The position numbers and the translations under genes are program-made. A stretch of DNA of 64,000 nucleotides from Flavobacteriales bacterium (GTDB lineage: Bacteria; Bacteroidota; Bacteroidia; Flavobacteriales_F; PHOS-HE28). The DNA is taken from contig JADJCX010000018.1 in the NCBI GenBank assembly GCA_016703005.1, positions 3,794-67,793 on the forward strand, given 5' to 3'. The notes beneath the pieces were generated by a model. That model did not search any database, was not told the origin of the DNA, and worked only from the letters and a program-made list of their open reading frames with translations. Positions 1,385 through 54,600 of the stretch are shown piece by piece; the first letter of the stretch is position 1; the number at the start of each line of letters is the position of its first letter.

Positions 1385-1446
1385 TGTTCGTGTAATACCT
1401 GCCCATGCGCTCCCATCAATGGACAGGAGCGCGAGGCATGGTCGGT

Positions 1447-1806: not shown

Positions 1807-2533
1807 GGTGCACGGGTTGGTTGGTTTTCTTCTACCAAGGCAACGAGAACCAAGCCACCTTATTCGGGAAGTTCAGATAGCTACCGTCCCACTCACTTGC
1901 ACGTGACTGGACCCTGATCAGCGCACGTACTAACGGGGTAGATAGACCCCAAACCGGGATGTTGCGAGCCATGCCTTTGCCTTGCAAGGATCAACGGCTT
2001 TGGTCGCGTCGGCGCGCCAATGGATGGCCTTACGTTTGGCGCACCATGTCCCTTAACCGCGTTGAACGAGTGCGTCGCAGCTTTGCGATGGGACTTATTG
2101 CGTTGGTTGCGTGGAGCGCGTTGATGCCTGTGCTGTATCGCATGGATTGCCTGAGCAGCGGCCGGAGCGTTACGTCTTGGTTCACACCGGTCAACTGTCC
2201 TGGCACCGATGTCCCTGCCGGTGACCGCCCCTGTATCACGCCGAATTGCTGCGTGTTCATGAGCGCTTCGGTGGATCAACTGCTCTTCAATCCGGATAAA
2301 ACCGTGCCCGTTCCGTCGGTGCCGGAATTGGCGTGGACCCCTGCCGTTTGTGTTGTTCCGGCGCTCGGCCCGTTGCCCACCACTGGGCACTTCGTTGATC
2401 GAGGGCCGCCTAAGGCGCGATCGACCGACCTCGTTTTTATTGGAAGCCTGAGGATCTGAGATCCCCAGTAGAGTGCGCCCGATGCTTCCCGGCATCGGGC
2501 TGTGTCGTTTTCCAATAAACCCCGGTTGTTGTC

Positions 2534-3262: not shown

Positions 3263-3268
3263 ACCATT

Positions 3269-4984
3269 ATGACCCGTGCCTCAGTTTGTACATCGCTCAT
3301 CATCGGGTGCATTTGGGCCCAAGCGCAGACGCCGCTCCCCATTCCCGATACGTTAACCGGTCCATTGATCCAACTGGCGCTGCAAGAAGGCACGCAGGAG
3401 TTCCATCCCGGCGAGGTGGTGGCCACGTACGGCTATAATGGCGATCTGCTCGGCCCCACCTTGATCCTCCAGCAGGGCGAACCCATCACTTTGAACGTCA
3501 CCAATACGCTGCCCGACCTGACCACCACGCATTGGCATGGCCTGCATGTGAGCCCCGCGAACGACGGTGGGCCGCATTCGGTGATCCTGCCCAACACAAC
3601 ATGGTCGCCATCGTTCACGGTGATGGATCGCGCTTCAACATTCTGGTACCACCCGCACGGCCATGGCCTTACCGACTACCAGGTGAGTTTAGGTGCCGCC
3701 GGTATGATCATCGTTCGCGATGCGCAGGAGGCGGCCCTCGACTTGCCCAGGACATACGGGGTCGATGACATACCGTTGATCCTTCAAACGAAGGCGATCG
3801 TTAGCGGCCAAGTCGCGTTGCACACCGGCTTGGACAGCGTAGTGCTGGCCAATGGTGTGCGCAATGCGTGGAAGGAATTGCCCGCCCAAGTGGTGCGCTT
3901 GCGCTGCTTGAACGGTTCCAGTGAGCGCACCTTCTTGTTGGGTTTCAGTAACGCACTTCAGTTCCATGTCATTGGCACGGATGGTGGGTTGCTGGCTGCA
4001 CCTGTCACCTTGAACCGCCTACAGTTGATGCCCGGGGAACGGGCTGAACTGCTTGTGGACCTTGGAGGGCAGCAAGGACAGTCGTTCCAGTTGATGAGTT
4101 ACGGGAGCGAGTTGCCCGACGACATCATTGGCGCCGCGCAGGTCGGCAACGGTATGGCAACGCTCGATGGATATGACCTGAACGCACTGAACGGTGCGGA
4201 CTTCGCACTGGTCACCTTCGCCGTTGGAGCGCCCACTGGTGATGGCACACTCGTTGTGCCCACAGCACTCGTGCCCACCAATGCATTCAACACGGCCGAT
4301 GTGGATGTAACGCGTCCGTTCAACATTGAACCGGAAAGCATGGGGGCCATGCAAATGATCGAAGGCCCTTTCGAGATCAATGGCGCGCTGATGGACATGG
4401 ATGTGATCAACGAAGTTGTGCAATTGGGCAGCACCGAGATCTGGGAGTTCATCAATAACACAATGGTGGGCCACCCGATCCACATCCACGACATCCAGTT
4501 CAATATCCTCGATCGCAACGGCTTGCCGCCGGAGCCTTGGGAAAGCGGGTGGAAGGATGTGGTCTTCGTGCCTGCCATGGGCAGCGCGCGTGTGATCACG
4601 CGCTTCGATGATTTCGCCGATCCGGATATGCCGTACATGTACCACTGCCATCTGCTCATGCACGAGGACGAGGGTATGATGGGGCAATTCCTCGTGATCG
4701 ATCCCAATGCCGTTGGCGAACTGATGACCGATCAGGTCGGCTTGACCGTTTGGCCGCAACCGTACGCCGATGGCCCGCTTCGACTGCAAGCCGAAGGGCT
4801 CGAGGGCCGGTGCACGGTTGCGCTGGCTGATGCCTTGGGTCGCACGGTGCTTTTGGAACAAACCGTTTTCAGTGATGGTCGCGGTTCCATCGTGTTGCCG
4901 GTGGTCGCCCCGGGGCACTATGTCCTGCGCATCACCGCCCGCGGCCACGTGCCGCTGGCAACCACGCTGATCGTCCAACCTTGA
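3269..4984 (+). CDS. multicopper oxidase (laccase/CueO-like) with T9SS C-terminal sorting domain
   Basis: 571-aa ORF. Signal peptide. Copper-ligand motifs HWHGLHV, HPHGH, HIHDIQF and HCHLLMHEDEGMM. The last roughly 80 aa (PLRLQAEG ... GHYVLRITARG ... LIVQP) look like a T9SS CTD. Confidence 0.85.
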   Translation: MTRASVCTSLIIGCIWAQAQTPLPIPDTLTGPLIQLALQEGTQEFHPGEVVATYGYNGDLLGPTLILQQGEPITLNVTNTLPDLTTTHWHGLHVSPANDGGPHSVILPNTTWSPSFTVMDRASTFWYHPHGHGLTDYQVSLGAAGMIIVRDAQEAALDLPRTYGVDDIPLILQTKAIVSGQVALHTGLDSVVLANGVRNAWKELPAQVVRLRCLNGSSERTFLLGFSNALQFHVIGTDGGLLAAPVTLNRLQLMPGERAELLVDLGGQQGQSFQLMSYGSELPDDIIGAAQVGNGMATLDGYDLNALNGADFALVTFAVGAPTGDGTLVVPTALVPTNAFNTADVDVTRPFNIEPESMGAMQMIEGPFEINGALMDMDVINEVVQLGSTEIWEFINNTMVGHPIHIHDIQFNILDRNGLPPEPWESGWKDVVFVPAMGSARVITRFDDFADPDMPYMYHCHLLMHEDEGMMGQFLVIDPNAVGELMTDQVGLTVWPQPYADGPLRLQAEGLEGRCTVALADALGRTVLLEQTVFSDGRGSIVLPVVAPGHYVLRITARGHVPLATTLIVQP

Positions 4985-5054
4985 ACCACGGACACAAGAT
5001 TTTCGATACTGCCTTTCACTTCACATCACAACTGGAAACCAAAACAACGTTCAC

Positions 5055-5795
5055 ATGAAAAAGCTCTTCTCCGTTATTCTCGCATCTGCGTGCCTTGCTT
5101 CGGCAACCGCGCAAACCACTGCACTGGATTTCACCGCCAACGATTGCGATGGCGTGAGCCATAACCTCTTTACCGAACTCGAGGCCGGTGATGTGGTGAT
5201 CATCGAACTGGTAATGATGGGCTGCCAACCCTGCGTTACCGCCGGCAATAGTCTCAAGAACAATGTGCTGCCCAACGTGAGTGACCCAAGCCGTGTGAAG
5301 CTGTACAGCATTGGCTTCACCAACGGTATCAATTGCACCCAGATGAACGACTGGAAGAACACCAACGGGTTCACGCACACCGTGTTCGCAGGCATGAGCG
5401 CACAAACAACGCACTACGGTGGTATGGGCATGCCGACCATCGCGGTGGTAGGTGGTGCGGCGCACGATGTGTTCTACAGCGAACAAGGTCATAGCGACAG
5501 TGATAACCCCGATATCCTCGCCGCCATAGAAGCAGCGCTCGTTGCGGGTGTTGGCATCAATGAGGTGAACTCAACGGATGTGGTCATTCACCCGAACCCT
5601 GTTGTCGATATCCTCAACTTCGATAAGGCCGATTGGACCAACGCCCGCATCCTCGACCTGCAAGGTCGTGAAGTGATGAATGTGCAACTCGTGGCAGGCA
5701 AGCTGGACGTGTCGCTGCTACAACCCGGCATGTTCGTGCTGCAATTGACCAATGCAACGGGTGCGCTGGGTACTACGCGCTTCGAGAAGAAGTGA
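5055..5795 (+). CDS. thioredoxin-fold (TlpA/ResA-like, CQPC motif) protein with T9SS C-terminal sorting domain
   Basis: 246-aa ORF. Signal peptide MKKLFSVILASACLASATAQ. A CxxC motif (MMGCQPCV) plus a downstream cis-Pro-like GMPTIAVVGG. C-terminus VVIHPNPVVDILNF ... GMFVLQLTNATG is CTD-like. Confidence 0.55.
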   Translation: MKKLFSVILASACLASATAQTTALDFTANDCDGVSHNLFTELEAGDVVIIELVMMGCQPCVTAGNSLKNNVLPNVSDPSRVKLYSIGFTNGINCTQMNDWKNTNGFTHTVFAGMSAQTTHYGGMGMPTIAVVGGAAHDVFYSEQGHSDSDNPDILAAIEAALVAGVGINEVNSTDVVIHPNPVVDILNFDKADWTNARILDLQGREVMNVQLVAGKLDVSLLQPGMFVLQLTNATGALGTTRFEKK

Positions 5796-5882
5796 TCAGG
5801 AGTGATGGTCGGAGCAGGCGGAGAGCCTGCTCCGATGTTGCACCTTCATGGAGACAGTAACACTGCTGAACCGCAACACAAC

Positions 5883-7319: not shown

Positions 7320-7328
7320 GTGCGGTGC

Positions 7329-7904
7329 ATGGGTCCCTTACTTACCATCCGCAACATGGTCTGCGACCGGTGCAAGTCGGCCGTGGCGCGTGTGTTCGAT
7401 GGGCAGCACTTGCCGGTGAAGCGCATCGAACTCGGAGAGGTGGAACTGCTCCGCGAACCTTTGACCGACGAGCTGGATGCCTTACGCGGCGCGTTGCGGG
7501 TGGAAGGCTTCGAACTGGTGGATGATCGCGACGCCGTGACCATCGCCCGCATCAAGGCGGCGATCGTGAAGCTGGTGCACCACGATGGCGATATGCAGGG
7601 CCGGGTGAAACTGGGCGATCATCTCAGTGCGTTACTGCACAAGGAATACTCTGGTCTCACAGCGCTCTTCACGCAGGTGGAAGGCATCACCATCGAGCAG
7701 TTCTTCCTCTTGCAGCGCCTTGAGCGCGTGAAGGAGCTGATCAAGTACGATGAGCTCACACTGAGCGAGATCGCGGACCGCACGGGCTTCAGCAGTGTTG
7801 CCCACTTGAGCGCACAGTTCAAGAAGCTCACCGGCATGACGCCGACCGCTTTCAAGCAACTAGGCTTGGCGCGTACCCCATTGGACAGGGTGGGCCCGAT
7901 GTAA
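7329..7904 (+). CDS. AraC-family transcriptional regulator with N-terminal HMA-like (MxCxxC) metal-binding domain, a candidate copper-responsive regulator
   Basis: N-terminus LLTIRNMVCDRCKSAVARVF is a canonical HMA motif. C-terminus ITIEQFFLLQRLERVKELI ... LSEIADRTGFSSVAHLSAQFKKLTGMTPTAFK is an AraC-type HTH. It lies immediately upstream of the copZ-like and copA genes. Confidence 0.7.
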   Translation: MGPLLTIRNMVCDRCKSAVARVFDGQHLPVKRIELGEVELLREPLTDELDALRGALRVEGFELVDDRDAVTIARIKAAIVKLVHHDGDMQGRVKLGDHLSALLHKEYSGLTALFTQVEGITIEQFFLLQRLERVKELIKYDELTLSEIADRTGFSSVAHLSAQFKKLTGMTPTAFKQLGLARTPLDRVGPM

Positions 7905-7976
7905 ACTCTTCCGGTCAGGATGTAACGCCTACGGTCCTTTGTCGCCGGTGCTTTGTACCGTCAAGAACGAACGACC

Positions 7977-8405
7977 ATGGACAACACGAACATCACCCTT
8001 CCGCTGCTCGACGTGAACAGCCCGCATTGCGCGCTGCGCGTTGAGAAAGCCATCCGCACGGTACCCGCTATCGCCGGCGCCGAAGTGGACCTGAACGCAC
8101 ATATGGCCCACCTGACCAGCACCGCACCGGCTACCGCAGTGCGCGAGGCGGTGGCCGCCATACGCAAAGCAGGCTACAACGTGGCCACCGAAGCGCACCG
8201 CTTCACCACCACCGGTGTCACCTGCGCCGGTTGCGCGAAAAGCGTGGGCACCATCCTGAACAAGCTGCCCGGCGTGATAAGTGCGCGCGTGGACCATGTG
8301 GAGAAGACGGCCGAGATCGAAGTGGTGAAGGGCACGTTATCGATCGATGATCTGCTGAACGCCCTCAAACCCGCTGGCTACGGCCTTATCGCACAAGCCG
8401 CATAA
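7977..8405 (+). CDS. tandem HMA-domain protein (CopZ-like copper chaperone with two domains)
   Basis: Domain 1 carries a degenerate motif, DVNSPHCALRVEKAI. Domain 2 is canonical, GVTCAGCAKSV. Each domain is about 65 aa. Confidence 0.7.
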   Translation: MDNTNITLPLLDVNSPHCALRVEKAIRTVPAIAGAEVDLNAHMAHLTSTAPATAVREAVAAIRKAGYNVATEAHRFTTTGVTCAGCAKSVGTILNKLPGVISARVDHVEKTAEIEVVKGTLSIDDLLNALKPAGYGLIAQAA

Positions 8406-8411: not shown

Positions 8412-10848
8412 ATGGCCATGACTGCCGAGACAAGCACTCTGGTGCTGCCCGTGGAGAACATGGACAGCGAGCACTGCGCGCTGATCGTGGACAAGGCCCT
8501 GGCCACCGTTCCATCGGTGACCGCCCACCATGTGGAGCTGGACAACCGCAGCGCGGTGATCGAGAGCACCACGCCCGTGGAGGCCGTGCGCGATGTGGTG
8601 AAGGCCATCCGCGACAACGGGTACGATGTACCCACCCTGAGGCGCACTTTTCCCGTGACCGGCATGACCTGCGCGAGCTGCGTGAGCAGCGTGGAGAGCA
8701 TGCTGCTTGCCCAGCCCGGTGTGATGAACGCCGCCGTGAACCTGGCCACCAACACCGTGCAGGTGGAGTATGTACCCGGTGTGATCGATGAACGCCGCAT
8801 GCGCGCGGTGGTGCAGAGCATCGGCTACGACCTGCTCATCAGCGAAGAGCGCGAGGCGACCGCCGACCTGGAGGCGATCCAGCGCGCACGCATGACCTCG
8901 CTGAAGCAACGCCTGTGGGCCTCCATCGCACTGAGCACACCGCTGGTGGTCATCGGCATGTTCGTCATGCACGAGCCGTGGGCCAACTTCGTGATGTGGG
9001 CCTTGAGCACACCGGTGGTGCTCGTCTTCGGCCGCTCCTTCTTCATCAACGCATGGAAGCAGGCGAAACACCGCAGCGCCAACATGGACACGCTGGTCGC
9101 CCTGAGCACGGGCGTGGCCTATGTTTTCAGCGTCTTCAACACCACCTACCCTTCGTTCTGGACCAGCCGCGGGCTGATGCCCCACGTCTACTTCGAGGCG
9201 GCGGCGGTGGTCATCACCTTCATCCTGCTCGGCAAGTTCCTGGAGGAACGCGCCAAGGCCGGGACCAGCAGCGCCATCAAGAAACTGATGGGCCTGCGCC
9301 CCAGCACCGTGCTGCGCGAAGGGAGCAACGGTCAGACCAGTGAAGTGCCCATCGCCGATGTCAACGTGGACGACATCCTGGTGGTGCGTCCGGGCGAGAG
9401 CATAGCGGTGGACGGGGAGGTGATCGGCGGCGAGAGCTACGTGGACGAAAGCATGCTCAGCGGTGAGCCGGTGCCCGTGGCGAAGCTCGTGGGCGCGCAG
9501 GTGCTGGCCGGCACCATCAACCAGAAGGGCAGCTTGCGCATGAAGGCCCGCAAGGTCGGTGCCGCCACATTGCTGGCGCAGATCGTGCGCACCGTGCAGG
9601 ACGCACAGGGCAGCAAGGCGCCCGTGCAGAAGCTCGTGGACAAGATCGCGGGCGTCTTCGTGCCCATCGTCATCGGCATCGCGCTTCTCAGCGCCATCGT
9701 GTGGTGGGTCTTCGGAGGCGAGCATGCGTTCACCCAAGGACTGTTGGCCATGGTCACCGTGCTGGTGATCGCCTGCCCGTGCGCACTGGGTCTTGCCACG
9801 CCCACCGCCATCATGGCCGGCATGGGCAAGGGCGCCGAGAACGGGATCCTCATCAAGGACGCCGAAAGCCTGGAGCGCGCACGCAAGATCACCGCCATCG
9901 TGCTGGACAAGACCGGCACCATCACCGAAGGCAAGCCGGATGTGGTGGAGGCCGTAGGCCTCGACGACCAGGAAGCCGCCGCAGCGCTGCTCGCCATCGA
10001 GTCCCGATCGGAGCATCCCCTTGGCGGAAGCGGTGACACGCCACCTGCACACCATCGGCATTCATCAAGCACCAGAGGTAACCGGCTTCGAAAGCCTCAC
10101 CGGCAAGGGCGTGAAAGCCACGGTGAACGGAACCATCTGGTACGTCGGCAACGAGCGCTTGCTCGAAGAGAACGGCATCGTTGTCGAGGGTGCCTACCGC
10201 GAACGGGAGCGGACCTGGCAGGAAGCCGCGCACACCGTGATCTGGTTCGCCGATGCGAAAGAAGTGCGTGCCGCCGTGGCCATCGCAGACCGCATCAAGC
10301 CCAGCGCGATTCAGGCCATCGCCCGGCTGAAAGAGGCCGGTGTGAAGGTCTTCATGCAGACCGGCGATTCGCGGCGCACCGCTCAGGCGGTGGCAAAGGC
10401 AGTGGGCATCGATGACTTCCGCAGCGAAGTGCTGCCCTCAGACAAGGCCGCTTTCGTTACCGCCCTGCAGCAACAAGGCCATGTGGTGGCCATGGTGGGC
10501 GACGGCATCAACGACAGCGAAGCGCTCGCCAAGGCGGACGTGAGCATCGCCATGGGCCAAGGCAGCGACATCGCCATGGACGTGGCGCGCATGACACTCA
10601 TCAGTACCGACCTCAACGCCATCCCACGCGCGATCACGCTCTCGCGCAAGACCGTCAACCTCATCCGCCAGAACCTCTTCTGGGCATTCATCTACAATGT
10701 GTTGGGCATCCCGATCGCGGCCGGTATCCTGTATCCCATCAACGGCTTCCTGCTGAACCCCATGATCGCCGGTGCGGCCATGGCCTTCAGCAGCGTGAGC
10801 GTGGTGAGCAACAGCCTGCGCCTCCGTTGGGCCCGGCTCGACAATTGA
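8412..10848 (+). CDS. copA: copper-translocating P1B-type ATPase (CopA), interrupted by a single-base frameshift near 10017 to 10020 (C4 run)
   Basis: Two N-terminal HMA domains (first degenerate SEHCAL, second [12 protein letters not shown]). CPC motif [20 protein letters not shown] phosphorylation site. The first ORF breaks after SEHPL. The continuation AEAVTRHL ... [11 protein letters not shown] ... resumes in the +1 frame from 10021. An intact gene would have ccc where cccc is seen. Confidence 0.85.
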
Positions 10849-10874
10849 CCGAACGACCTATACCTCCAACGATC

Positions 10875-11768
10875 ATGAAAACCCTCCTCTCCCTCATCGC
10901 GCTACCAGCGCTGCTGTTCTTCAGCAGTTGCAGCGCGCAGATCAAGAACGCGCAGAGCACCATCGTGCGCATCACCGGTAATTGCGGCATGTGCGAGAAG
11001 ACCATCGAGAAGGTCGCCTACGTGAAGGGCGAAGCGGAAGCTGATTGGGATGTGGACGCCAAGACCGCGCGCATCACCTTCGACAGCACACGCACCAGCA
11101 TGGATGCCGTGCTGCAACGCATCGCCTACGCGGGTTATGACAGCGAACGCTACCTCGCTCCCGATGCCGCCTATGCCGCGCTGCCCGGTTGCTGCCAATA
11201 CGTGCGCACGTTCAAGAAGGCGCCGTTGACCACGACTCCGGTCGAACATGCCGGGCATGAAGGCATGGGCACGGACCATGCGCAACATGGCAGCACTTCC
11301 CCCGATACGCTTGCGGCGCAAGTACCGGCGAACCCAAAGTCCGATCAGTTCAATGGTCTCTTCACCGCCTATTTCGCTCTGAAGGACGCGCTCGTGGCTT
11401 CGGATGCGAAGAAGGCTGCGGCCCATGCTTCCGAATTGTCCGCTGCCGTGAAGGCCGTGAAGATGGAACGCATGGGACCCGAGCTACATGGTGTTTGGAT
11501 GCAAGTGATGGAGCCGCTCGCGAACATCAGCGCGGGCATCGCTTCGAAGACGGATATCGAGGCGCAGCGCAAGGCCTTCGCCGAACTTTCAGCACCCATC
11601 CTCGCGCTGGTGAAGGTCGCGCCGCGCCCGGAGCCGGTCTATTACGACCACTGCCCCATGTACGAGGGCGGCGCGGACTGGCTGAGCCAGGAGAAAGGCA
11701 TCAAGAACCCGTTCTATGGTTCGATGATGCTCACCTGTGGCAGCTTGAAGGAGACCATCACGAAGTAA
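10875..11768 (+). CDS. lipoprotein with N-terminal HMA-like domain and DUF3347-like C-terminal region ending in a CPM metal motif
   Basis: Signal and lipobox MKTLLSLIALPALLFFSSC. HMA-like ITGNCGMCEKTIEK. C-terminus YYDHCPMYEGGADWLSQ ... MLTCGS. Copper context. Confidence 0.55.
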   Translation: MKTLLSLIALPALLFFSSCSAQIKNAQSTIVRITGNCGMCEKTIEKVAYVKGEAEADWDVDAKTARITFDSTRTSMDAVLQRIAYAGYDSERYLAPDAAYAALPGCCQYVRTFKKAPLTTTPVEHAGHEGMGTDHAQHGSTSPDTLAAQVPANPKSDQFNGLFTAYFALKDALVASDAKKAAAHASELSAAVKAVKMERMGPELHGVWMQVMEPLANISAGIASKTDIEAQRKAFAELSAPILALVKVAPRPEPVYYDHCPMYEGGADWLSQEKGIKNPFYGSMMLTCGSLKETITK

Positions 11769-11786
11769 TGCCCGCGATCACGCCCC

Positions 11787-14089
11787 ATGGACCTGCTTCG
11801 CTTCCTCCGCATCGCGATCCAGTTGATCGCCCTGTTGATCTTCCTGCTGAGCGGAGACTTGGCCACTGCGCAGGACGGATATGGTACACGCGCATTGGGC
11901 ACCTCGGTGCCGAGCGGCGACTTCACTCCGCGCACTAACCGCTATGACCTCACCATCCGGGATACCATCGTCAACTACACGGGCAAGGCGCGCAAGGCCT
12001 TCACGGTGAACGGGCAGATGCCCATGCCCACCCTCACCTTCACCGAAGGCGATACGGCAGAGATCGTGGTGCACAACGCCATGGAAAAGGAGGAGACCTC
12101 CTTGCACTGGCACGGCATCATCCTGCCGTATCAGCTGGACGGCGTACCCTACCTGACCACGGCCCCTATAAAGGCCGGTGAAACACAGGTGTACAAGTTC
12201 CCCCTTTTGCAGAGCGGCACCTACTGGTACCACTCGCACACCAAGTTGCAAGAGCAGAACGGCATGCACGGCGCGCTCATCATCCACAAGCGGAATGTGG
12301 AGCCCATGCCCGAGCAAGTGCTTATCCTGAGCGAGTGGACGGACATGAAGCCCTTCGAGGTGCACCGCCGCCTGCACAGCGCGAACGATTGGAGCGCCAT
12401 CAAAAGCACCGGATCCGGCCGGGCACCGTGCAGAGCTACAGCGATGCCATCAAGGACGGTGCGCTCGGCGTGAAGCTCACCAACGAGTGGAAGCGCATGA
12501 ACGCCATGGACGTGAGCGATGTCTACTACGACCTCCTTTTCGCCAACGGCAAACCCGTGGACGAAGCGCCGCGGTTCAAGGCCGGTGAGCGTGTGCGCGT
12601 GCGGCTGATCAACGGCGGGGCGAGCAGCTACTTCTGGATCACTTATGCCGGTGGGAAGATGACCGTGGTGGCCAGCGACGGCATCGATGTGGAACCGGTG
12701 GAGGTCGACCGCTTCATCATGGGCATCGCCGAGACCTACGACATCATCGTGACCATACCGGCGGACAGCACGGCCTATGAACTGGTGGCCACCAGCGAGG
12801 ATCGGGTACGCTCCACCTCCCTGTGGCTCGGCAGCGGCATCCGGCAGCTCGCCGCACCGCTCCAGCCGCTGAAGTACTTCGCCGGTATGGAGATGATGAA
12901 CGACATGATGAAGATGAACGGCGACCTCGATGACATGGGCATGAACATGAGCCTCCAGCAGATGGACATGAACGTGGTGATGTACCCGAGATCACCGGCG
13001 CGAAAGCGACACCCGTTGAAGGTGCAGGACATTCCCATGGTGGTGACGAATACAACAGCAATGCGCTGTCCAACATCGTCACGCTCAACTACGCCATGTT
13101 GCGTTCACCCACCAGCACCGCGCTGCCGCCCGGGCCCGTAAAGGAGATGCGCTTCGAGCTCACCGGCAACATGAACCGCTACCTCTGGGCCATCGACAAC
13201 AAGACCGTTTCGGAGACGGACCGCATCCTGATCCGCAAGGGCGAGAACGTGCGCATCATCCTCTACAACAACAGCATGATGCGGCACCCGATGCACCTGC
13301 ACGGCCACTTCTTCCGGGTGGTGAACGGTCAGGGAGACCACTCGCCGCTGAAGAACGTGCTCGACATCATGCCCATGGAGACGGACACCATCGAGTTCGC
13401 CGCCACCGAAACGGGCGACTGGTTCTTCCACTGCCACATCCTCTACCACATGATGAGCGGCATGGGCCGTGTGTTCACTTACGAAGGGACCGGCGCCGAA
13501 CCCGCAACTGCCCGATGTGAAGAAAGCCGCGCGCCTGTTCTCCCGCGACGACAAGGAATGGCACTTCATGGTACAGAACGACTTCGCCACGAACGGCAAC
13601 GACGGCGAGGCCATGTACATGAACAAGCGCTGGAACCTGCAGAGCGAATGGCGCTTGGGCTACATGGAGGAACACGGCCAGGAAGTGGAGACCCACTTCG
13701 GTCGCTACTTCGGCAAGATGCAATGGCTGTTCGTGAACGTGGGCCTGGACTGGCGCACACGCGAAGGACACGGCGGCAACGATCCGGAGGATAACCTCTT
13801 CGGGCAGACCAATACCAAGAACAGCCGGAGCGTGGGGCATATCGGATTCCAGTACACCCTGCCGATGCTCCTGGTCCTTGACGTGCGCATCGACACCGAT
13901 GGCCAACTGCGGTCACAACTGATGCGTGAGGACATCCCGCTAACGCCCCGGATGCGGATGGACCTGATGTACAACACCGATCTGGAGTACATGGCCGGCC
14001 TGCGCTATGTGCTGGACAAGACGTGGGCGATAAGGGCGCACTACGATAGTGACATGGGCTTGGGCGTGGGCATGACGATGAGCTACTGA
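11787..14089 (+). CDS. multicopper oxidase (CopA/PcoA-like) fused to a CopB-like C-terminal region; reading frame broken 3 times (about 12425, 12988, 13503)
   Basis: Four consecutive overlapping ORFs are collinear with a single roughly 765-aa protein. Cupredoxin motifs HWHGIILP, WYHSHT, HPMHLHGH, HCHILYHMMSGM. The final roughly 200 aa (EWHFMVQNDFATNG ... GLDWRTREG ... YDSDMGLGVGM) resemble the outer-membrane CopB family. The breaks sit at CCGGAG read as CCGAG, at a C run, and in a GC-rich run. Confidence 0.75.
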
Positions 14090-14134
14090 GGTCTGTCCGT
14101 TTGAGGGTGCATTCCATTGCGCGATCTTGGCGGC

Positions 14135-15346
14135 ATGAAACACATCTTGCTCTTCATGGTGATCATGGCGGTCGGGTCAACATCCGCCCAGAACCCGGTC
14201 ATACAGATCGTCCTTGACGCAGTGAGCACCGACAGTTTGGTCAGCTATGTCAGTCAACTCAGCGGCGAAACGACCGTGGATGTGGGCAACGGACCCGAGA
14301 TGATCGTAAGCCGCCACAAGTTGAACGCTGGTAATGCTGTTGCCCAAGCATGGCTGCAGCAGAAGCTCACCGAATTCGGTTATGCGCCGACAACGCAATC
14401 GTTCAGCGCAACCGGGTTCAATGTGCTTGCCGAAAAAACCGGTGCGCTCCATCCCGATAGCAGGGTGATCATTTGCGGCCACTACGATGCCATGCCCGGC
14501 GGCATAGCCGCTGCACCGGCTGCCGATGACGATGGCAGCGGAACGTGTAGTGTGCTTGAAGCTGCACGGATCCTTGCACCGTACACCTTCGAACACACCA
14601 TCGTATTCGCTCTATGGGATGAGGAGGAACAAGGGAAGATCGGCAGCCTCTTCTACGCTGGGGTTTCCGCCGCCAACGACGATACGATCCATGCCGTGGT
14701 GAATATGGATGCCATTGCTTATGATGGCAACGGCGACGGACTTGCACGCATCCACACGCGACCGGTCGCGAACAGCCTTGCCATCAAGGACACGGCGCTT
14801 GCGGTCAATACTGATTACGGCCTCAACATCAACTTGGCCATCAATAACCCGGGCGCCACGTATAGCGATCACGCCAGTTTCTGGACCGAAGGTTACGGCG
14901 CCATCCTTGTCATCGAGGATTTCGATAACGACGGCAACCCGCACTATCACACACCGACCGACCTGCTGCAGTACCTCACCCAAAGCATGTGGAGCGACCT
15001 CACCAAGTTGAGCATCGGTACGGTGGCCACCCTTGCCATACCGTACAACAACAACTTGGCCTTAGTTGAAAGAGCTGCACCTACCGCCCAGCTCTTCGCT
15101 TTTCCTGTGCCGTCGGAAGGAGATGCGCGTGTTTGGGTGGAGAGCCGCACCGCAGGAAGGGCGAGGTTGGAATTGGTTGACGCTATGGGTCGCACCATGT
15201 ACCTATTGCACGAAGGCCCGCTCGCACAGGGCAAGCAGGCCTTCGACGTACCGTTGGGCGATCTGGCGCCCGGGAGCTATCGCGCCGTTCTCACCTCTTC
15301 GGACGGAACCAAGAGTTCCGTTGCACTGGTGCGCACGGCGCAGTGA
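14135..15346 (+). CDS. M28-family zinc aminopeptidase with T9SS C-terminal sorting domain
   Basis: Signal peptide MKHILLFMVIMAVGSTSAQ. HYDAMPGG ... DDDGSGTCSVLEAARIL and DHASF motifs. C-terminal roughly 90 aa is CTD-like (LFAFPVPSEG ... GSYRAVL). Confidence 0.7.
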   Translation: MKHILLFMVIMAVGSTSAQNPVIQIVLDAVSTDSLVSYVSQLSGETTVDVGNGPEMIVSRHKLNAGNAVAQAWLQQKLTEFGYAPTTQSFSATGFNVLAEKTGALHPDSRVIICGHYDAMPGGIAAAPAADDDGSGTCSVLEAARILAPYTFEHTIVFALWDEEEQGKIGSLFYAGVSAANDDTIHAVVNMDAIAYDGNGDGLARIHTRPVANSLAIKDTALAVNTDYGLNINLAINNPGATYSDHASFWTEGYGAILVIEDFDNDGNPHYHTPTDLLQYLTQSMWSDLTKLSIGTVATLAIPYNNNLALVERAAPTAQLFAFPVPSEGDARVWVESRTAGRARLELVDAMGRTMYLLHEGPLAQGKQAFDVPLGDLAPGSYRAVLTSSDGTKSSVALVRTAQ

Positions 15347-30826: not shown

Positions 30827-31911
30827 ATGAGTTCGCTGCTGGAGAAACTGCGCGCCGTGCACGAACGCCGCGCTGAAGTGGAGAAGAGCCTGGCCGACCC
30901 GAGATCGTTATCGCGGACCAGAAGCGGTTCAGGGAACTGAGCCGGAGCTACAAGGACCTGGAGCCGATCGACAATGCCTTCAGGCGCTACGACAAACTGA
31001 CGAGCGAATTGGTCGGTACCAACGAAATGCTGAAGTCCGAGAAGGACTCCGACGTGCTGTCGATGGTCCGTGAGGAGCATGACGCGCTTCGGACGCGGAT
31101 CGAAGCAATGGAGGAGGAGGTGCGCATGTTATTGGTGCCCAAGGACCCCAACGACGACCGCAACTGCACCATGGAAATACGCGCAGGCACCGGTGGCGAC
31201 GAGGCGAGCATTTTCGCCGGGGATCTGTACCGCATGTACACCCGCTACTGCGAACGCCTCGGTTGGAAAGTCGAGGTTGCCGATATCAGCGAAGGCAGTG
31301 CCGGTGGCTTCAAGGAGGTCATCATCAACGTTACCGGCGAAGGGGTCTATGGCGTGCTGAAGTATGAGGCCGGTGTACACCGCGTGCAACGTGTGCCGCA
31401 GACCGAAGCCCAAGGCCGTATCCACACCAGCGCAGCAACCGTCACCGTGCTTCCGGAGGCGGAAGAGTTCGATGTGGAAGTGAAGGAGAGCGATGTGAAG
31501 ATGGAGACCGCCCGCAGCGGTGGGGCCGGTGGCCAGAACGTGAACAAGGTGGAAACGAAGGTGCGCCTCACGCACATCCCCACCGGCATCGTGGTGATGT
31601 GCCAGACCGACCGCAGCCAGTTGGGCAACCGGTTGAAAGCGATGCAAATGCTGCGCACCAAGCTCTATGACGAAGGCTTGCGCAAAGTGCAGGAAGCCGA
31701 GGCCACCCACCGTAAGAGCCAGGTGAGCAGCGGCGACCGTAGTGCCAAGATCCGCACCTACAACTATCCACAAAGCCGCATCACCGATCACCGCATCGAG
31801 TTCACTGCGCACAATCTGCCTGCGGTGATGAACGGCGATCTTCAGGATATCATTGATGCGTTGCAACTGGCCGACCGGACAGAGAAACTGAAAGAGAGCG
31901 CAAGCGCATGA
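30827..31911 (+). CDS. prfA: peptide chain release factor 1; N-terminal 25 codons in another frame (frameshift near 30900)
   Basis: GGQNVNK motif. PQT tripeptide (RF1-type PxT) in [21 protein letters not shown]. An ATG at 30827 gives [25 protein letters not shown]. It then needs one extra nucleotide (CCGGAG read as CCGAG) to join ... [13 protein letters not shown] ... NEMLKSEKD. Confidence 0.8.
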
Positions 31912-34373: not shown

Positions 34374-34516
34374 GGGGGGGGGGGGGGGGGGGGGGGGGGG
34401 CCGGGGGGGGGGTTGGGGGGGGGGGGGGGGGGGGGGGGGGGGCCGGGGGGGTTTTTTTTTTTGGGGGGGGTTTTTTTTTTTTGGTTTTGGGTTTTTGTGG
34501 GGTTTGGGGGGGGGGG
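34374..34516. repeat. extreme low-complexity tract made almost only of long G runs and T runs (G~37 CC G~10 TT G~38 CC G7 T11 G8 T12 ... G11)
   Basis: Directly visible between the PspC gene and the oxidoreductase. No A, and only isolated CC pairs, over about 145 nt. Antisense translation gives poly-Pro and poly-Lys nonsense. Confidence 0.9.
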
Positions 34517-34620
34517 CGGTGAATGATTACGGTCGACATCGCCCTTGTTCGGGAAAGGCTCCTGGCAGTCCATCTCCGTTTCTTAGCAGGACCTTTTGCA
34601 CTGCTCACATCCAGGGTCGC

Positions 34621-36348
34621 TTAAAAGCTCTGGGAGATCGAACAACAACTAGCAGGGGAGCTATTGCGGACACCATCATCATAGGCTCAGGCGCTGGCCA
34701 TTTGTCGGGGGGCCGCGACATCGGCCCCTGGCGGCTTTCGGCACGCGCTGGCAAGAAGGTGTTGGTGTTGGAGCAACACTACGTCCCCGGCGGCTGGTGC
34801 CACAGCTTCTTCCTCAATGGTCATCGCTTCAGTCCGGGTGTACACTACATCGGTATGATGGGCGAGGGGGAGAGCACGCGCGAGTTGTACGAAGGCCTTG
34901 ACATCGCCAACGATCTAGTCTTCTTCCGCATGAACCCTGCGGCCTATGAGCACTGCTGGATCGGCGAGCACCGCATTGATATGCCGGCCGGTATCGACAA
35001 CCTGTACGAGCACTTGGCGCAGCGCTTTCCGCACGAGCGTAAAGGCTTGAAGCGCTACCTCACCACTGTGCGCAACGTGAGCGACCAGTTGCAACTGATC
35101 CACCGCATGAGCGGCTTCCTGGATCACCTCACGATCCCCTTCCGCACGCGGCACTTGGGCAAGTACGGCCTCTTCAGTTTGAAGCGCGTGATCGACTGGC
35201 ACATCAAGGATCCCTTGCTGAAGAAGGTGCTCAACGTGCAATGCGGCGATCACGGGTTGCCGCCCAGCCTGGCACCCTTTCCCGTGCATGCTGCCGTGAT
35301 GCAGCACTACTTCGATGGCGGTTACTATCCCATGGGCGGTGGCGCTGGTATCGTGAAGGCGATGACCACGGCGATCAAGAAGCACGGCGGCGTGGTGCGC
35401 ACCGATGCCGGTGTGAAGCGCATTCTATTGGAAGGCGATGGCAAAGCGAAGCGTGCCGTTGGCGTGGAACTCATGAACGGGGAGCGCATCAACGCGTCAA
35501 CGATCGTCTCCAATGCCGACCCGCACAAGACGTACATCGGCATGGTGGGGAAGGAGCACTTGGACAACAAGGTGTTGAAGAAGTTGGCGGCCACCCGGTA
35601 CAGCGTCACCAGCATCATGCTCTTCGTTACCGTGGACATGGATGTGCGCGCGGCGGGTCTCGATTCCGGCAACATCTGGATGCTGCGCAACGTGGACATG
35701 GAAGAACTCTTCCGCGACATGTCGCGCACCGACATCCTCACCGATGATGAGTTCCCCGGGGCCTTCATCAGTTGCCCCACGCTGAAGGATCCCACCAGCT
35801 TCAATGGGCGTTACCACGACATCGAGATGGTGACCTACCTCGACTACAAGGCCTTCGAACCGTTCGAAGGGCTCGGCGAGCGCACGGCCGAGTATGGCAC
35901 GTGGAAGGAGCGCATCAAGGAGAAGATGCTGAACGGGTTGGAGCGTGTGCTCCCCGGTGTGCGAGCGCGCATCGTGCAAGCCGAGATCGGAACGCCCATC
36001 ACCAACGAGCACTACGTGCAGAGCACACGCGGTAGCGTCTATGGCACCGAGAAGACGTTGAAGCATGTCGGCCCGTTCGCGTTCGGTGTGAAAGCGCCGA
36101 TCGAAGGCTTGTACCTCACCGGGGCCAGCACGCTGACGCATGGCGTGGCGGGTGCATCCATCTCAGGCGTGATCACCGCGGCGGCCGTATTGGGTTGCAC
36201 TAAGGACGACCTGTTGAAGCCCGACCCATCGCAGCGTCTGCGTATCCACGATGCTGAGGATGAAACGACGTGGCCCGAGTGGGTGTGGGTGAAACGTGCC
36301 GACAAACGCAGGCGGTTCAAGCCCGTCGCCGTTCGTGCTGCAACGTGA
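34621..36348 (+). CDS. FAD-dependent oxidoreductase, phytoene desaturase (CrtI)-like / retinol-saturase-like; start codon not identifiable
   Basis: Rossmann motif IIIGSGAGHLSGG from about 34672. LVLEQHYVPGGWCHSF motif. Roughly 560 aa. No in-frame ATG, GTG or TTG exists between the low-complexity tract and the Rossmann motif. Confidence 0.6.
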   Translation, partial: LKALGDRTTTSRGAIADTIIIGSGAGHLSGGRDIGPWRLSARAGKKVLVLEQHYVPGGWCHSFFLNGHRFSPGVHYIGMMGEGESTRELYEGLDIANDLVFFRMNPAAYEHCWIGEHRIDMPAGIDNLYEHLAQRFPHERKGLKRYLTTVRNVSDQLQLIHRMSGFLDHLTIPFRTRHLGKYGLFSLKRVIDWHIKDPLLKKVLNVQCGDHGLPPSLAPFPVHAAVMQHYFDGGYYPMGGGAGIVKAMTTAIKKHGGVVRTDAGVKRILLEGDGKAKRAVGVELMNGERINASTIVSNADPHKTYIGMVGKEHLDNKVLKKLAATRYSVTSIMLFVTVDMDVRAAGLDSGNIWMLRNVDMEELFRDMSRTDILTDDEFPGAFISCPTLKDPTSFNGRYHDIEMVTYLDYKAFEPFEGLGERTAEYGTWKERIKEKMLNGLERVLPGVRARIVQAEIGTPITNEHYVQSTRGSVYGTEKTLKHVGPFAFGVKAPIEGLYLTGASTLTHGVAGASISGVITAAAVLGCTKDDLLKPDPSQRLRIHDAEDETTWPEWVWVKRADKRRRFKPVAVRAAT

Positions 36349-38112: not shown

Positions 38113-38113
38113 C

Positions 38114-39181: not shown

Positions 39182-39229
39182 CGCGAGTGGCTTTCTCGCC
39201 CACACCGGCTAAACTTGCGCCCCCGTTCC

Positions 39230-39769: not shown

Positions 39770-39772
39770 ACC

Positions 39773-41199: not shown

Positions 41200-41257
41200 T
41201 ACCAACCTGTGAGCTGTCAATATGTTGCAAGTCCCGTTGAAGGGGACAAGGCCAGCC

Positions 41258-45974: not shown

Positions 45975-46671
45975 ATGCCGACCCTGAGCAAGAAGCGCAA
46001 GGCCGCCATGGCCAAGTTCGATAGCACGAAGAGCTACAACCTCGCAGAGGCCACCAGCATCGTGAAGCAAGTGAGCACCACCAAGTTCGATGCAACGGTC
46101 GATATCGCCGTGCGCCTTGGTGTTGATCCGAAGAAAAGCACCGAAATGGTGCGTGGTACGGTGAGCCTGCCCCATGGCACCGGCCGTACTGTGAAGGTGC
46201 TGGTGCTCGCTGACCCCGCCAAGTGCGAGGAGGCGATGGCCGCTGGTGCCGACATGGCCGGATTGGACGAGTACGTGGAGAAGATCAAGGGCGGTTGGAC
46301 CAATGTGGATGTGATCATCTGCACGCCCGCCGTGATGGCCAAAGTGGGAGCGCTGGGCCGTGTGCTCGGTCCCCGTGGCCTGATGCCCAAACCCAAAGAC
46401 CGGTACCGTTACCATGGACGTGGCCAAGGCCGTGAAAGAGGTGAAGGCCGGTAAGATCGACTTCAAGGTGGACAAGGCCGGCATCATCCACGCGGTGATC
46501 GGCAAGGCCAGCTTCGACGCCGTGAAACTGAGCGAGAACGCGAACGAACTGTTGCAGACCCTGCTGAAGCTGAAGCCCAGCACCAGCAAAGGGGTTTACA
46601 TCAGGAGCATTTGCATCAGCAGCACCATGAGCCCTGGTGTTCTTGTGGACGCAAGGACCGTAGCCAACTAA
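45975..46671 (+). CDS. rplA: 50S ribosomal protein L1; reading frame broken near 46397
   Basis: Two collinear ORFs (... [10 protein letters not shown] / [26 protein letters not shown] ...). The junction lies at cccaaagaccggtacc. Confidence 0.85.
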
Positions 46672-51665: not shown

Positions 51666-54600
51666 ATGAAGAAGGATGTAAAGCTGACCAGCAACTTCAA
51701 CAAGATCGTCATCAGTCTTGCGAGCCCGGAATTGATCCTGGAGCGCAGCCCATGGTGGAGGTGATCAAGCCGGAGACGATCAACTACCGCACGTACAAGC
51801 CCGAACGCGATGGTTTGTTCTGCGAGCGGATCTTCGGTCCGGTAAAGGATTTCGAATGCCACTGCGGTAAGTACAAGCGTATCCGTTATAAGGGTATCGT
51901 GTGCGATCGCTGCGGTGTGGAAGTGACGGAGAAGAAGGTCCGCCGCGAGCGCATGGGACACATTTCGCTCACCGTTCCGGTGGCGCACATCTGGTACTTC
52001 CGCAGCCTGCCCAATAAGATCGGTTACTTGCTGGGCCTGCCCACCAAGAAGCTCGACCAGATCATCTACTACGAGCGCTATGTGGTTATCCAAGCCGGCA
52101 CCGGTACCGCAACGAACAAGGAGGGTGTTGCCATCCAATACCTCGACTTCCTCACGGAAGAAGAGTACCTCGACGCGCTCGAGCAATTGGGCAAGGACAA
52201 CCAGCACCTCGACGACAGTGACCCGAACAAGTTCATCGCCAAAATGGGCGCTGAAGCATTGAACGACCTGCTCCGTCGTTTGGACTTGGACACCTTGAGC
52301 TATGACCTGCGTCACAAGGCGAATACCGAGACCAGTCAGCAGCGCAAGAACGAAGCACTGAAGCGCCTCAACGTGGTGGAAGCCTTGCGTGAAGCCAACA
52401 CGCGCCGCGAGAACAAGCCCGAATGGATGATCGTGAAGGTGGTTCCGGTCATCCCGCCCGAGTTGCGCCCCCTGGTGCCCCTGGATGGTGGCCGTTTCGC
52501 CACCAGCGATCTGAACGATCTCTATCGCCGTGTGATCATCCGTAACAACCGCTTGAAGCGGTTGGTGGAGATCAAAGCACCTGAGGTGATCCTGCGCAAC
52601 GAAAAGCGCATGTTGCAGGAAGCCGTGGACAGCCTCTTCGACAACAGTCGCAAGAGCAGTGCGGTGAAGAGCGAGAGTAACCGTCCCTTGAAGTCATTGA
52701 GCGATTCGCTCAAGGGCAAGCAGGGCCGGTTCCGTCAGAACCTGCTCGGTAAGCGTGTCGACTACAGTGCACGTTCCGTGATCGTTGTAGGACCCGAACT
52801 GAAATTGCATGAATGCGGTTTGCCCAAGGGTATGGCTGCCGAGTTGTTCAAGCCGTTCATCATCCGCAAGCTCATCGAGCGGGGATTGTGAAGACGGTGA
52901 AGAGCGCCAAGAAGATCGTGGACAAGAAGGAGCCCGTGGTGTGGGACATTTTGGAGAGCGTGCTGAAGGGCCATCCTGTGCTCCTGAACCGCGCACCAAC
53001 GCTCCACCGTCTGGGTATCCAAGCTTTCCAGCCCAAGTTGATCGAGGGCAAGGCCATCCAGTTGCACCCGCTCGTTTGTACGGCGTTCAACGCTGACTTC
53101 GATGGTGACCAAATGGCCGTACACGTGCCCCTCGGACACGCTGCTATCCTGGAAGCCCAACTGCTCATGTTGGCCAGCCACAACATCCTGAACCCTGCCA
53201 ACGGTGCGCCTATCGCGGTGCCTAGCCAGGACATGGTGCTAGGGTTGTATTACATCACCAAAGGGCGGAAGAGCGAAAAGGACCATCCTGTGAAGGGTGA
53301 AGGCCGTACGTTCTACAGCCCTGAGGAGGTGGTTATCGCTTACAACGAGAACCGCGTGGACTTGCACGCTTGGATCAAGGTGCGTTGGACCGGTGTGGAT
53401 GGCAAGAGCCAGATCATCGAGACGACCGTTGGTCGTGTATTGTTCAATGATGTGGTGCCGGATGAGGCTGGCTACATCAACGAGCTGCTGACCAAAAAGG
53501 CTCTTCGCGATATCATCGGCCGTGTGCTGAAGACGGCTGGCACAGCTAAAGCCGCCAAGTTCCACGACGATATCAAAGAGATTGGCTTCAACATCGCCTT
53601 CAAGGGTGGTCTGTCCTTCAACTTGGAGGACGTGATCGTGCCAGACGAGAAGGAGAAGTTGGTGAAAGCAGCGCAGAAGGAAGTGGACGAAGTGATGGGC
53701 AACTACAACATGGGCCTGATCACCAACAATGAGCGTTACAACCAGGTCATCGACATCTGGACACACACGAATAGCCGTGTGACCAAAACGTTGATGGACC
53801 GCCTCGCAGCCGACCGTCAGGGCTTCAACTCCATCTTCATGATGATGGACAGTGGTGCTCGTGGTAGTAAAGAGCAGATCCGTCAGCTCAGCGGTATGCG
53901 GGGTCTTATGGCCAAGCCGCAGAAGAGCGGTGGTGGTGGTTCGCAGGACATTATCGAGAACCCCATCCTCTCGAACTTCAAAGAAGGACTTTCGATCCTT
54001 GAGTACTTCATCAGCACGCACGGTGCCCGTAAGGGTCTCGCCGATACCGCGCTGAAGACCGCTGACGCAGGTTACCTGACCCGCCGTCTAGTGGACGTTG
54101 CGCAGGACGTGGTGATCAACGCCGAGGACTGCGGAACGCTCCGTGGTCTGGTGGCAACGGCACTGAAAAAGAACGAGGAGATCGTGGAGTCGCTCCATGA
54201 TCGTATCCTTGGCCGTTGTGCGGTTCACGATGTCTATCACCCACAGACCGGCGAACTGATCGTGTCGAGCGGTGAGCAGATCACCGAGGATATTGCCACG
54301 ATCATCGGCGCCAGCCCGATCGAGGAGGTGGAGATCCGCAGCGTCCTGACGTGTGAGCAGAAGAAAGGCGTTTGCACCAAGTGCTACGGTCGCAACCTTG
54401 CGACAGGTCGTATGGTGCACATTGGTGAGGCTGTCGGCGTTATCGCCGCACAGTCCATCGGTGAACCAGGTACCCAGCTTACACTGCGTACGTTCCACGT
54501 AGGTGGTGTTGCAGGTAAGATCACCGAGGAAAGCGAGGTGAAAGCCAAATATGATGGCAAGCTCGAGATCGATGAGCTGCGCACTGTGAAGCGGAAGGAC

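Follow-up and report, generated by a model that had tools for sequence, protein, structure and literature searches.

Single-base frame breaks in the copA and multicopper oxidase genes of a Flavobacteriales bacterium are very probably consensus errors

The window analysed here, a 64-kb stretch (64,000 nucleotides) of a contig assigned to a Flavobacteriales bacterium, contains the genes of a P1B-type copper ATPase (copA) and of a multicopper oxidase (MCO), both of which are interrupted by changes of the reading frame (Table 1). The list of open reading frames, together with a codon-usage frame model, placed the change in copA near 10002-10021 and the changes in the MCO gene near 12413, 12988 and 13499. 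The Pfam search assigned two HMA domains and an E1-E2_ATPase domain to the first piece of copA and a HAD hydrolase domain to the second. The CPC, DKTGT and GDGINDS motifs are found in the restored CopA sequence, and the N-terminal HMA, E1-E2 ATPase and HAD domains, along with the CPC, DKTGT and SEHPL motifs, identify the protein as a copper ATPase of the P1B type.

The three domains of the MCO, Cu-oxidase_3, Cu-oxidase and Cu-oxidase_2, lie each on consecutive pieces of the gene. Over 100 homologues are full length (733-794 aa), the best of them being P0001 (768 aa, 98% identical). The protein is an MCO, but its close homologue P0001 scored 399.7 bits, below the 478.95-bit cut-off of the subfamily TIGR01480 (copper_res_A). 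The C-terminal part had been labelled ‘CopB’ in the original prediction, a name that found no Pfam match to CopB behind it. At E-values up to 10 the C-terminus matched only OMP_b-brl in Pfam, with a sub-threshold score of 17.4 bits (E = 0.005), and NCBIfam gave no match. The description of the gene as a ‘CopB fusion’, unsupported by the Pfam and NCBIfam searches, was rejected.

Table 1. Copper genes, private indels and artefactual stretches in the window
Feature	Position	Strand	Description
copA, P1B-type copper ATPase	8412..10848	+	two frames: 8412-10019 and 10021-10848
copA +1 insertion	10017..10021	+	CCCCT; one base fewer in relatives
MCO, three-domain, with conserved C-terminal extension of ~200 aa	11787..14089	+	four frames
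MCO -1 deletion	12401..12404	+	A5 read as A4
MCO -1 deletion	12986..12988	+	CCCGGAG to CCCGAG; GG in all four relatives
MCO +1 insertion	13490..13491	+	GGGACGG to GGGACCGG (C read as CC)
TPR/OmpA-family gene, 671 aa	27747	+	private +1 (C read as CC), splits the gene
prfA (RF1, 360 aa in relatives)	30904..30905	+	private +2 ‘AT’, codon 25-26
DUF2851 gene	32793	+	private -1 (T5 read as T4), six codons in
poly-G/poly-T junk, 145 nt, few Cs	34374-34518	.	runs G27, G28, T11, T12
junk and degraded stretch with several indels	34374..34735	.	harms the start of a FAD-dependent oxidoreductase gene
rpsU-xerC intergenic region	41214..41227	.	two private -1 deletions
intergenic, 25 nt past tRNA-Thr	43171	.	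private -1 (G3 read as G2)
rplA (231 aa in relatives)	46386..46389	+	private +1
rpoC	51749..52880	+	+1 at 51749, +1 at 51757, -1 at 52880 (G5 read as G4)
T9SS-secreted protein, 1237 aa	58461..59348	+	private -1 at 58461 (G6 to G5), -1 at 59348 (CC to C); three ORFs
patatin-family gene, 761 aa	61616..61958	-	private -1 (61616), -2 (61952, G run)
hypothetical gene, 225 aa	63865..63900	-	private -1 (A4 read as A3) and +1, 35 nt apart

Five assemblies, each from the same species or one closely related to it and 92-99% identical to the window, served for comparison. The MCO sites were covered by four of them, L001 (GCA_902825795.1), L002 (GCA_016718415.1), L096 (GCA_016706435.1) and L097 (GCA_963851765.1), and the copA site was compared with L001 and L002 only; nucleotide identity at the copper sites was 92-98%. 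A search of the genome contigs with RpoB returned only relatives with amino acid identity of 89% or less, which served to locate breaks by protein and were too distant for indel counts. Contigs of another species (80-89% nucleotide identity), found by a protein search with acyl-CoA dehydrogenase, were also left out of the counting. Exact-sequence look-ups of five proteins of the window (the DUF3347 protein, the M28 peptidase, EF-Tu, a 246-aa T9SS protein and the HMA protein) gave no match. As the comparison proposed in the original prediction has now revealed, the four indels in the copper genes are missing from every assembly that covers them, four for the MCO gene and two for copA. The copper cluster is syntenic with the intact clusters of L001, L002 and L097; CopA is intact in L001 (809 aa), and the MCO gene encodes an uninterrupted protein of 768 aa in L001, 766 aa in L002 and 763 aa in L097.

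The intact CopA of L001 aligns to two frames of the window. In the three-way MAFFT alignment of the site the window reads CATCCCCTTGG, L001 reads CATCCCT-TGG and L002 reads CATCCGC-TGG. Removal of one C brings back SEHPLAEAV and yields an ORF of 811 aa, which aligns without gaps and is 98.4% identical to the relatives. The predicted break at a run of four Cs, where three would restore SEHPLAEAV, was located correctly, as both the alignment and the repair show.

The breaks of the MCO gene needed partial relocation. The first had been predicted at about 12425, in the palindrome ccggatccggccgg, which in fact reads properly downstream of the break as H-R-I-R-P-G, corresponding to KKHRIRPG of the relatives. 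The multi-assembly DNA alignment places the deletion at 12401-12404, where the nearest relatives (L096 and L097) have ATCAAAAAGCAC against ATCAAAAGCAC in the window, aligned as ATC-AAAAGCAC; L001 and L002 carry AAGAA at this site. The second break, proposed at about 12988 as CCGGAG read as CCGAG, was borne out by the alignments. The third had been attributed to a C run at about 13503, which is the correctly read N-P downstream of the actual insertion, as the protein alignment EGT|APNPQ at that insertion illustrates. The two misplaced positions were 13-20 nt off. The repaired MCO comprises 767 aa and is 98.4% identical to the relatives. Altogether, four single-base edits leave copA and the MCO gene with no internal stops and no larger lesions.

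Similar private changes occur across the window. About 20 private indels of 1-2 nt were found in 62.2 kb (approximately 0.32 per kb), so the number of errors implied by the original prediction (seven) was too low. Their privacy was judged in alignments of three or four sequences, each region of the window being set against two or three relatives from among the five assemblies. Outside copA and the MCO gene they affect rpoC (three indels), rplA, prfA, five further genes and three sites between genes. The earlier reported breaks in rpoC, rplA and prfA are real, but they are not all single homopolymer changes: rpoC contains three indels, which spread the 1432-aa RpoC of the relatives over three frames, and prfA has gained the dinucleotide ‘AT’. 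A repair of prfA as CCGGAG read as CCGAG, the context of position 12987, was rejected because comparison with the relatives reveals an insertion of ‘AT’ (2 nt) instead; for this reason, the idea of an 11-mer error context shared by the two genes was dropped. The deletion in the DUF2851 gene puts its ATG start out of frame with the remaining gene, and the two deletions in the patatin-family gene jointly restore the frame, leaving about 112 garbled codons. An Illumina contig (L090) aligned over 37446-41603 differs from the window at two gap positions only. The stretch of poly-G and poly-T is missing from three assemblies of the same species (L086, L087 and L088). The rpoC, rplA, prfA, TPR/OmpA, DUF2851, T9SS, patatin and 225-aa genes are all intact in GCA_963851765.1, the assembly of the best quality, which has no private indels within genes.

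Seventeen of the 20 indels are within genes and three are intergenic, approximately as expected at random given the dense gene packing, and the frameshifting indels show no depletion in coding DNA. Half of the deletions (6 of 12) occurred in runs of four or more identical bases, in which only 2.7% of bases lie. Several errors, the ‘AT’ insertion in prfA and the insertions of a second C among them, are unlike the classic long-homopolymer type. The original prediction spoke of four clustered breaks: all four are present in the sequence, but their clustering is no more than chance would give. Since at least four indels fall within 3.47 kb in 75% of random placements of 20 indels over 62.2 kb, the cluster is not significant. 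The density in copA and the MCO gene is about threefold that elsewhere (four in 4.74 kb, or 0.84 per kb, vs 0.28 per kb), with a binomial P of 0.06 for 4 of 20. No disruption specific to the island and above the background was found by either measure (scan P = 0.75; binomial P = 0.06). The notion of the copper genes as an error hot-spot, being without statistical support, was discarded.

The breaks in copA and the MCO gene very likely arose as consensus errors in an error-prone assembly. Since they are four of about 20 indels private to it, both genes can almost certainly be taken as intact in the living bacterium. The original prediction of systematic indel error and probably intact copper genes is thus upheld, with the four indels private and essential genes likewise affected. 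Among essential single-copy genes, rpoC (three times), rplA and prfA carry such indels, at a frequency resembling that in dispensable genes. The most likely source is an incompletely polished long-read (nanopore-type) MAG of an activated-sludge Flavobacteriales bacterium. The approximately 20 length errors of the window are scattered over coding and non-coding DNA, four of them lying by chance within the 4.7 kb of copA and the MCO gene. The actual products would be a copper ATPase of the P1B type, about 810 aa long, and an MCO of about 767 aa, probably encoded in an ordinary copper-resistance cluster of an AraC regulator, an HMA chaperone, CopA, a DUF3347 protein and the MCO.

Nanopore homopolymer indels in consensus sequences are a documented source of frameshifted gene calls (PMC9262707). 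The window resembles nanopore R9-type consensus and MAG sequences (Sereika et al. 2022, PMC9262707; Singleton et al. 2021, PMC8012365) in its approximately 32 private 1-2 nt errors per 100 kb, in the enrichment of deletions in homopolymers and in fragmented gene calls that include essential genes. It differs from them by several events that change one base to two or two to one, or insert a dinucleotide, and are thereby unlike long-homopolymer errors; the poly-G/poly-T junk is an extra kind of artefact. One of the sister MAGs, GCA_016706435.1, was assembled with CANU from nanopore reads and polished with racon, medaka and Illumina-based racon (Singleton et al. 2021, PMC8012365). The sister MAGs of the nanopore study (PMC8012365) display the same error behaviour at other sites: GCA_016718415.1 and GCA_016706435.1 have private indels of their own in copA, the MCO gene, prfA and the gene of an M28 peptidase. 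The acyl-CoA dehydrogenase gene also seems to be broken in the sister MAGs, judging from a missing gene call. Among themselves, the better assemblies differ mostly by in-frame indels (3, 6, 15 and 21 nt) or by intergenic ones.

A variant of the artefact, in which the errors stem mainly from the collapse of co-occurring strains or of a horizontally shared copper island in consensus polishing, over and above homopolymer miscalling, appears unlikely. The metal-resistance region has a higher GC content (62% vs 58%), and within it the identity to L001 rises to 99.84% over 1375-5802 from about 92% elsewhere, which suggests recent exchange. Several indel sites adjoin polymorphic positions (10021, 13490, 46386 and 63900), and in the sister MAG L002 four of the five indels of a 22-kb region sit at 8.3-14.5 kb. 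However, most private indels of the window occur in housekeeping regions that are 98-99% identical to the relatives, and the share of deletions in homopolymer runs and the non-significance of the copper cluster also speak against this variant.

Copper-resistance genes are dispensable and frequently decay. A real and recent pseudogenisation, with at least one indel of the copper genes genuine and the breaks in essential genes elsewhere being sequencing errors, would agree with this and with the raised local density of indels; another MCO gene is also split in the sister MAG L002. Nevertheless, we regard it as very improbable. All four indels are private and of the same size class as those of rpoC, rplA and further genes, the excess of density is non-significant, and the sister MAGs are broken at other sites, as expected of independent errors. 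Once the four single-base errors are set aside, the two genes show neither in-frame stops nor any larger lesion, and synonymous changes predominate: synonymous to non-synonymous differences number 35:13 in copA and 71:11, 62:19 and 98:33 in the MCO gene, where the codon changes private to the window comprise six synonymous and two non-synonymous ones. The search for extra stops, larger deletions or a non-synonymous excess in copA and the MCO gene gave no sign of relaxed selection, although its power for very recent events is low. In the sequence, a genuine frameshift of very recent origin in a copper gene that is not essential would be indistinguishable from such an error. If the pseudogenisation were true, copper resistance would be in the course of loss in an activated-sludge Flavobacteriales lineage, masked by sequencing errors.

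Programmed frameshifts are known in E. coli copA (-1) and prfB (+1), and copA and release-factor genes have such frameshifts in some bacteria. The breaks of the window affect the same families, and that of prfA (codon 25-26) is near the position of the prfB shift; the position, direction and conservation are different, and the orthologues here are unshifted. Programmed frameshifting or other recoding across the breaks is exceedingly improbable. The orthologues are single ORFs (CopA 809, MCO 763-768, RF1 360, L1 231 and RpoC 1432 aa), and the relatives have no shift site at the homologous positions. The copA break lies at codon 536, within the conserved SEHPL motif rather than behind the first metal-binding domain. 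The release factor is of the RF1 type, its PxT tripeptide being PQT, and the break in its gene is a 2-nt insertion private to the window, at which no stop codon lies in frame. No common signal is possible for about twenty sites of varied context, with shifts of +1, +2, -1 and -2 and three of them intergenic. Given the intact orthologues and the intergenic events, translation through all these breaks by an unusual mechanism is effectively excluded.

With consensus error as the preferred reading, the repaired genes are similar to the Bacteroidota copper-resistance cluster of CopA and a PcoA/CopA-like MCO. The repaired CopA has the same two HMA domains, E1-E2 and HAD domains and motifs, and the MCO has a Met/His-rich loop in addition to its three cupredoxin domains; it differs from that cluster in scoring below the TIGR01480 cut-off and in its C-terminal extension of about 200 aa, which is not Pfam CopB. 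At least eleven genes of the window are damaged by consensus errors: eight are split, including rpoC, rplA and prfA, two are garbled and one has a damaged start. The finding is of value as a quality flag, and pseudogene calls, gene counts and metabolic inference from this assembly are unreliable before polishing. For the copper-resistance cluster we recommend an annotation as intact, or else as ‘frameshifted; probable sequencing error’, and advise against calling it decayed.

The ORF map and a reading-frame model, built from the codon usage of the long genes of the window, confirm that two genes of the copper-resistance cluster change frame as the original prediction claimed. The frame of copA, starting at 8412, changes once, near 10002-10021, and that of the multicopper oxidase (MCO) gene, starting at 11787, changes near 12413, 12988 and 13499. 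Together, the two copA pieces encode a P1B-type copper ATPase.

With the stitched MCO as the query, a search returned over 100 full-length homologues (733-794 aa), each encoded by a single ORF; the closest were the proteins P0001 (768 aa, 98% identity) and P0002 (766 aa, 96%), encoded in contigs that are syntenic with the window. L001, a locus of GCA_902825795.1, carries both genes intact (CopA, 809 aa; MCO, 768 aa), and L002, a locus of GCA_016718415.1 that shares 96.6% nucleotide identity with the window over 22 kb, encodes the MCO intact and has its own set of other split genes. Exact-match look-ups of rpsU, an FtsE-like ATPase and a DUF3467 protein added further same-species loci, including a 3.43-Mb contig of GCA_963851765.1 (97.7-99.2% identical; L097, L088 and L103 cover 11.7-64 kb of the window), GCA_016706435.1 (L096, L086), GCA_017989535.1 (L101) and additional loci of GCA_016718415.1 (L087, L102) and GCA_902825795.1 (L089, L104). 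In this comparison with related genomes, the check proposed originally, copA and the MCO gene are single ORFs in L001, and the indels of the window are private.

Multi-way MAFFT alignments gave the exact break positions. The copA break is a +1 insertion at 10017-10021 (CATCCCCTTGG in the window, CATCCCT-TGG in L001 and CATCCGC-TGG in L002); as predicted, it lies at a C run and its repair restores SEHPLAEAV. The first MCO break is the shortening of A5 to A4 at 12401-12404 (ATC-AAAAGCAC in the window, ATCAAAAAGCAC in L096 and L097). It had been placed at a palindrome near 12425, but this palindrome (12410-12423) is ruled out because the downstream frame reads it correctly as H-R-I-R-P-G, matching KKHRIRPG of all relatives. 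The second, CCCGGAG to CCCGAG at 12986-12988, is exactly the predicted reading of ccg-gag as ccgag. The third, GGGACGG to GGGACCGG, is located at 13490-13491 and not in the C run near 13503, which is correctly read as Asn-Pro in the downstream frame. After four single-base edits in silico, copA becomes an 811-aa ORF that is 98.4% identical to L001 CopA with zero gaps, and the MCO gene a 767-aa ORF that is 98.4% identical to P0001 and free of internal stops. The MCO loop after the Met-rich stretch (13005-13035) differs in length among the relatives (in-frame indels; -3, -6 and -15 nt), which looks like natural variation and not error.

Copper cluster genes and private indels in the window
Feature	Position	Change (nt)	Annotation	Basis
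AraC-family regulator	7320-7904		neighbour of copA/MCO	
Two-HMA protein	7953-8405		neighbour of copA/MCO	
copA, piece 1	8412-10016		two HMA, E1-E2_ATPase	Pfam
copA, piece 2	10021-10845		HAD hydrolase domain	Pfam
DUF3347/HMA protein	10827-11768		neighbour of copA/MCO	
MCO, three consecutive pieces	from 11787		Cu-oxidase_3, Cu-oxidase, Cu-oxidase_2, respectively	Pfam
MCO, fourth piece	13499-14086		no match	Pfam
M28 peptidase	14117-15346		neighbour of copA/MCO	
copA indel	10021	+1		alignment
MCO indels	12401, 12987, 13490	-1, -1, +1		alignment
TPR/OmpA gene indel	27747	+1		alignment
prfA indel	30904	+2		alignment
DUF2851 gene indel	32793	-1		alignment
Intergenic indels	41214, 41227, 43171	-1, -1, -1		alignment
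rplA indel	46386	+1		alignment
rpoC indels	51749, 51757, 52880	+1, +1, -1		alignment
T9SS protein gene indels	58461, 59348	-1, -1		alignment
Patatin gene indels	61616, 61952	-1, -2		alignment
225-aa gene indels	63865, 63900	-1, +1		alignment

The alignments with relatives revealed 20 small private indels in about 62 kb of the window. Sixteen of them, 1-2 nt long, lie outside the copper genes, where eight more genes are broken or garbled and three indels are intergenic. When intact proteins of relatives were mapped on the window by tblastn, RpoC (1432 aa) and the T9SS protein (1237 aa) each fell into three pieces, and L1 (231 aa), RF1 (360 aa), the TPR/OmpA protein (671 aa), CopA and MCO each occupied at least two frames. 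The patatin and 225-aa genes each contain a compensating indel pair with a garbled stretch in between, and the ATG of the DUF2851 gene is out of frame with the gene body. The breaks predicted in rpoC, rplA and prfA are thus all present, although that of prfA is a 2-nt insertion. Since the window is densely coding, the share of indels in genes (17/20, with 3/20 intergenic) is approximately that expected under random placement, and it gives no sign of selection against frameshifts. Unlike these indels, those between the better assemblies are mostly in-frame (3, 6, 15, 21 nt) or intergenic.

The concentration of breaks in the copper genes, on which the original prediction remarked, is not significant. 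When 20 events were placed randomly in 62.2 kb, at least four fell within 3.47 kb in 75% of simulations, and the binomial probability of at least 4/20 events in the 4.74 kb of copA and MCO is 0.06. Another such group occupies 61.6-63.9 kb, and three indels lie within 1.13 kb in rpoC alone. Genuine pseudogenisation at individual sites of the copper genes is improbable, and nothing favours it: the lesions are private, essential genes carry lesions of the same class, and extra stops or larger lesions are absent. Synonymous changes outnumber non-synonymous ones (35:13 in copA; 71:11, 62:19 and 98:33 in MCO), and the window-private codon changes in MCO are six synonymous and two non-synonymous. Programmed frameshifting, by which the breaks would be read through, is rejected because every orthologue is a single ORF, the copA break falls at codon 536 within the SEHPL motif, a PxT tripeptide (PQT) marks the release factor as RF1-type and its break is a private 2-nt insertion, and the 20 sites, three of them intergenic, vary in direction and context.

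Half of the deletions (6/12) lie in homopolymer runs of at least 4 (A5, T5, G5, G6, A4 and one G run), which hold only 2.7% of the bases of the window; most of the other indels add or remove one base in a run of 1-3. An unmistakable assembly artefact was found at 34374-34735, where 145 nt of G and T runs with few Cs (34374-34518; including G27, G28, T11 and T12) precede about 200 nt of degraded sequence. The stretch is absent from all three same-species assemblies covering the locus, damages the 5' end of a gene for a 556-aa FAD-dependent oxidoreductase and looks like a read end or a misjoin.

Sister assemblies have comparable defects, but at other sites than the window. GCA_016718415.1 has about 16 private small indels over the same 62 kb (L002, L087, L102), with split genes for the CueO-like MCO, the HMA protein, CopA, the M28 peptidase and the T9SS protein; a missing gene call suggests that its acyl-CoA dehydrogenase is broken too. 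In GCA_016706435.1 (L096, L086), private indels correspond to window positions 13286 (MCO), 30932 (prfA) and 35479. The annotations of the indel-bearing genes of both assemblies are also unreliable. In the same alignments, GCA_963851765.1 and GCA_017989535.1 have zero private indels in genes. GCA_016706435.1 (JADJJQ) is the MAG Ejby_18-Q3-R6-50_MAXAC.161 (Flavobacteriales, family PHOS-HE28; Singleton et al. 2021, supplementary data, PMC8012365), from a study in which CANU assemblies of nanopore reads were polished by racon, medaka and Illumina racon. Homopolymer indels remain in nanopore consensus and lead to frameshift errors in gene calling (Sereika et al. 2022, PMC9262707). The window, too, most likely comes from a nanopore-type long-read assembly. 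Collapse of strains or islands during polishing possibly contributes, as a variant of the artefact reading and not an alternative to it: the metal-resistance region has a higher GC content, identity to L001 reaches 99.84% in 1375-5802 but about 92% elsewhere, and some indel sites adjoin polymorphisms.

The label MCO-CopB was not borne out. The C-terminal 196 aa of MCO are conserved in every full-length homologue, and the extension of about 200 aa (13499-14089; P0001 residues ~570-768) recurs in over 100 Bacteroidota homologues (733-794 aa) and has an aromatic residue at its end. No CopB family match was obtained for it: Pfam gave one weak similarity, to OMP_b-brl (E=0.005), and NCBIfam nothing. 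The oxidase part scores under the TIGR01480 cut-off. The protein is better read as a three-domain MCO with an uncharacterised, possibly beta-barrel-like C-terminal extension, which may be an outer-membrane anchor.

The stretch 1375-5802 (L001 1-4428) contains a methyltransferase-like gene, a CueO-like MCO with a T9SS tail and a T9SS protein. Its 99.84% identity to GCA_902825795.1, with only about 92% in the adjoining 18 kb, points to a recent event, horizontal exchange or recombination, that affected part of the metal-resistance region. The copper cluster is preceded by a cation-efflux-like ORF (20-568) and two Cys-rich ORFs on the minus strand (752-1216 and 1450-1821), one with repeated MHPE..GKKGD.C.KC.M motifs and the other encoding a CxxxC-rich helical protein; these ORFs suggest a larger metal-resistance region at ~0-14 kb. 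The original observation is confirmed in part: all four breaks exist, two of them had been misplaced, and their clustering is not significant. The preferred original reading, systematic indel error, is supported by the spread of private indels to rpoC, rplA and prfA, and the near-identity of the repaired products to those of relatives supports intact copper genes in the organism; the four breaks are almost certainly errors of an error-prone assembly and not a biological feature.
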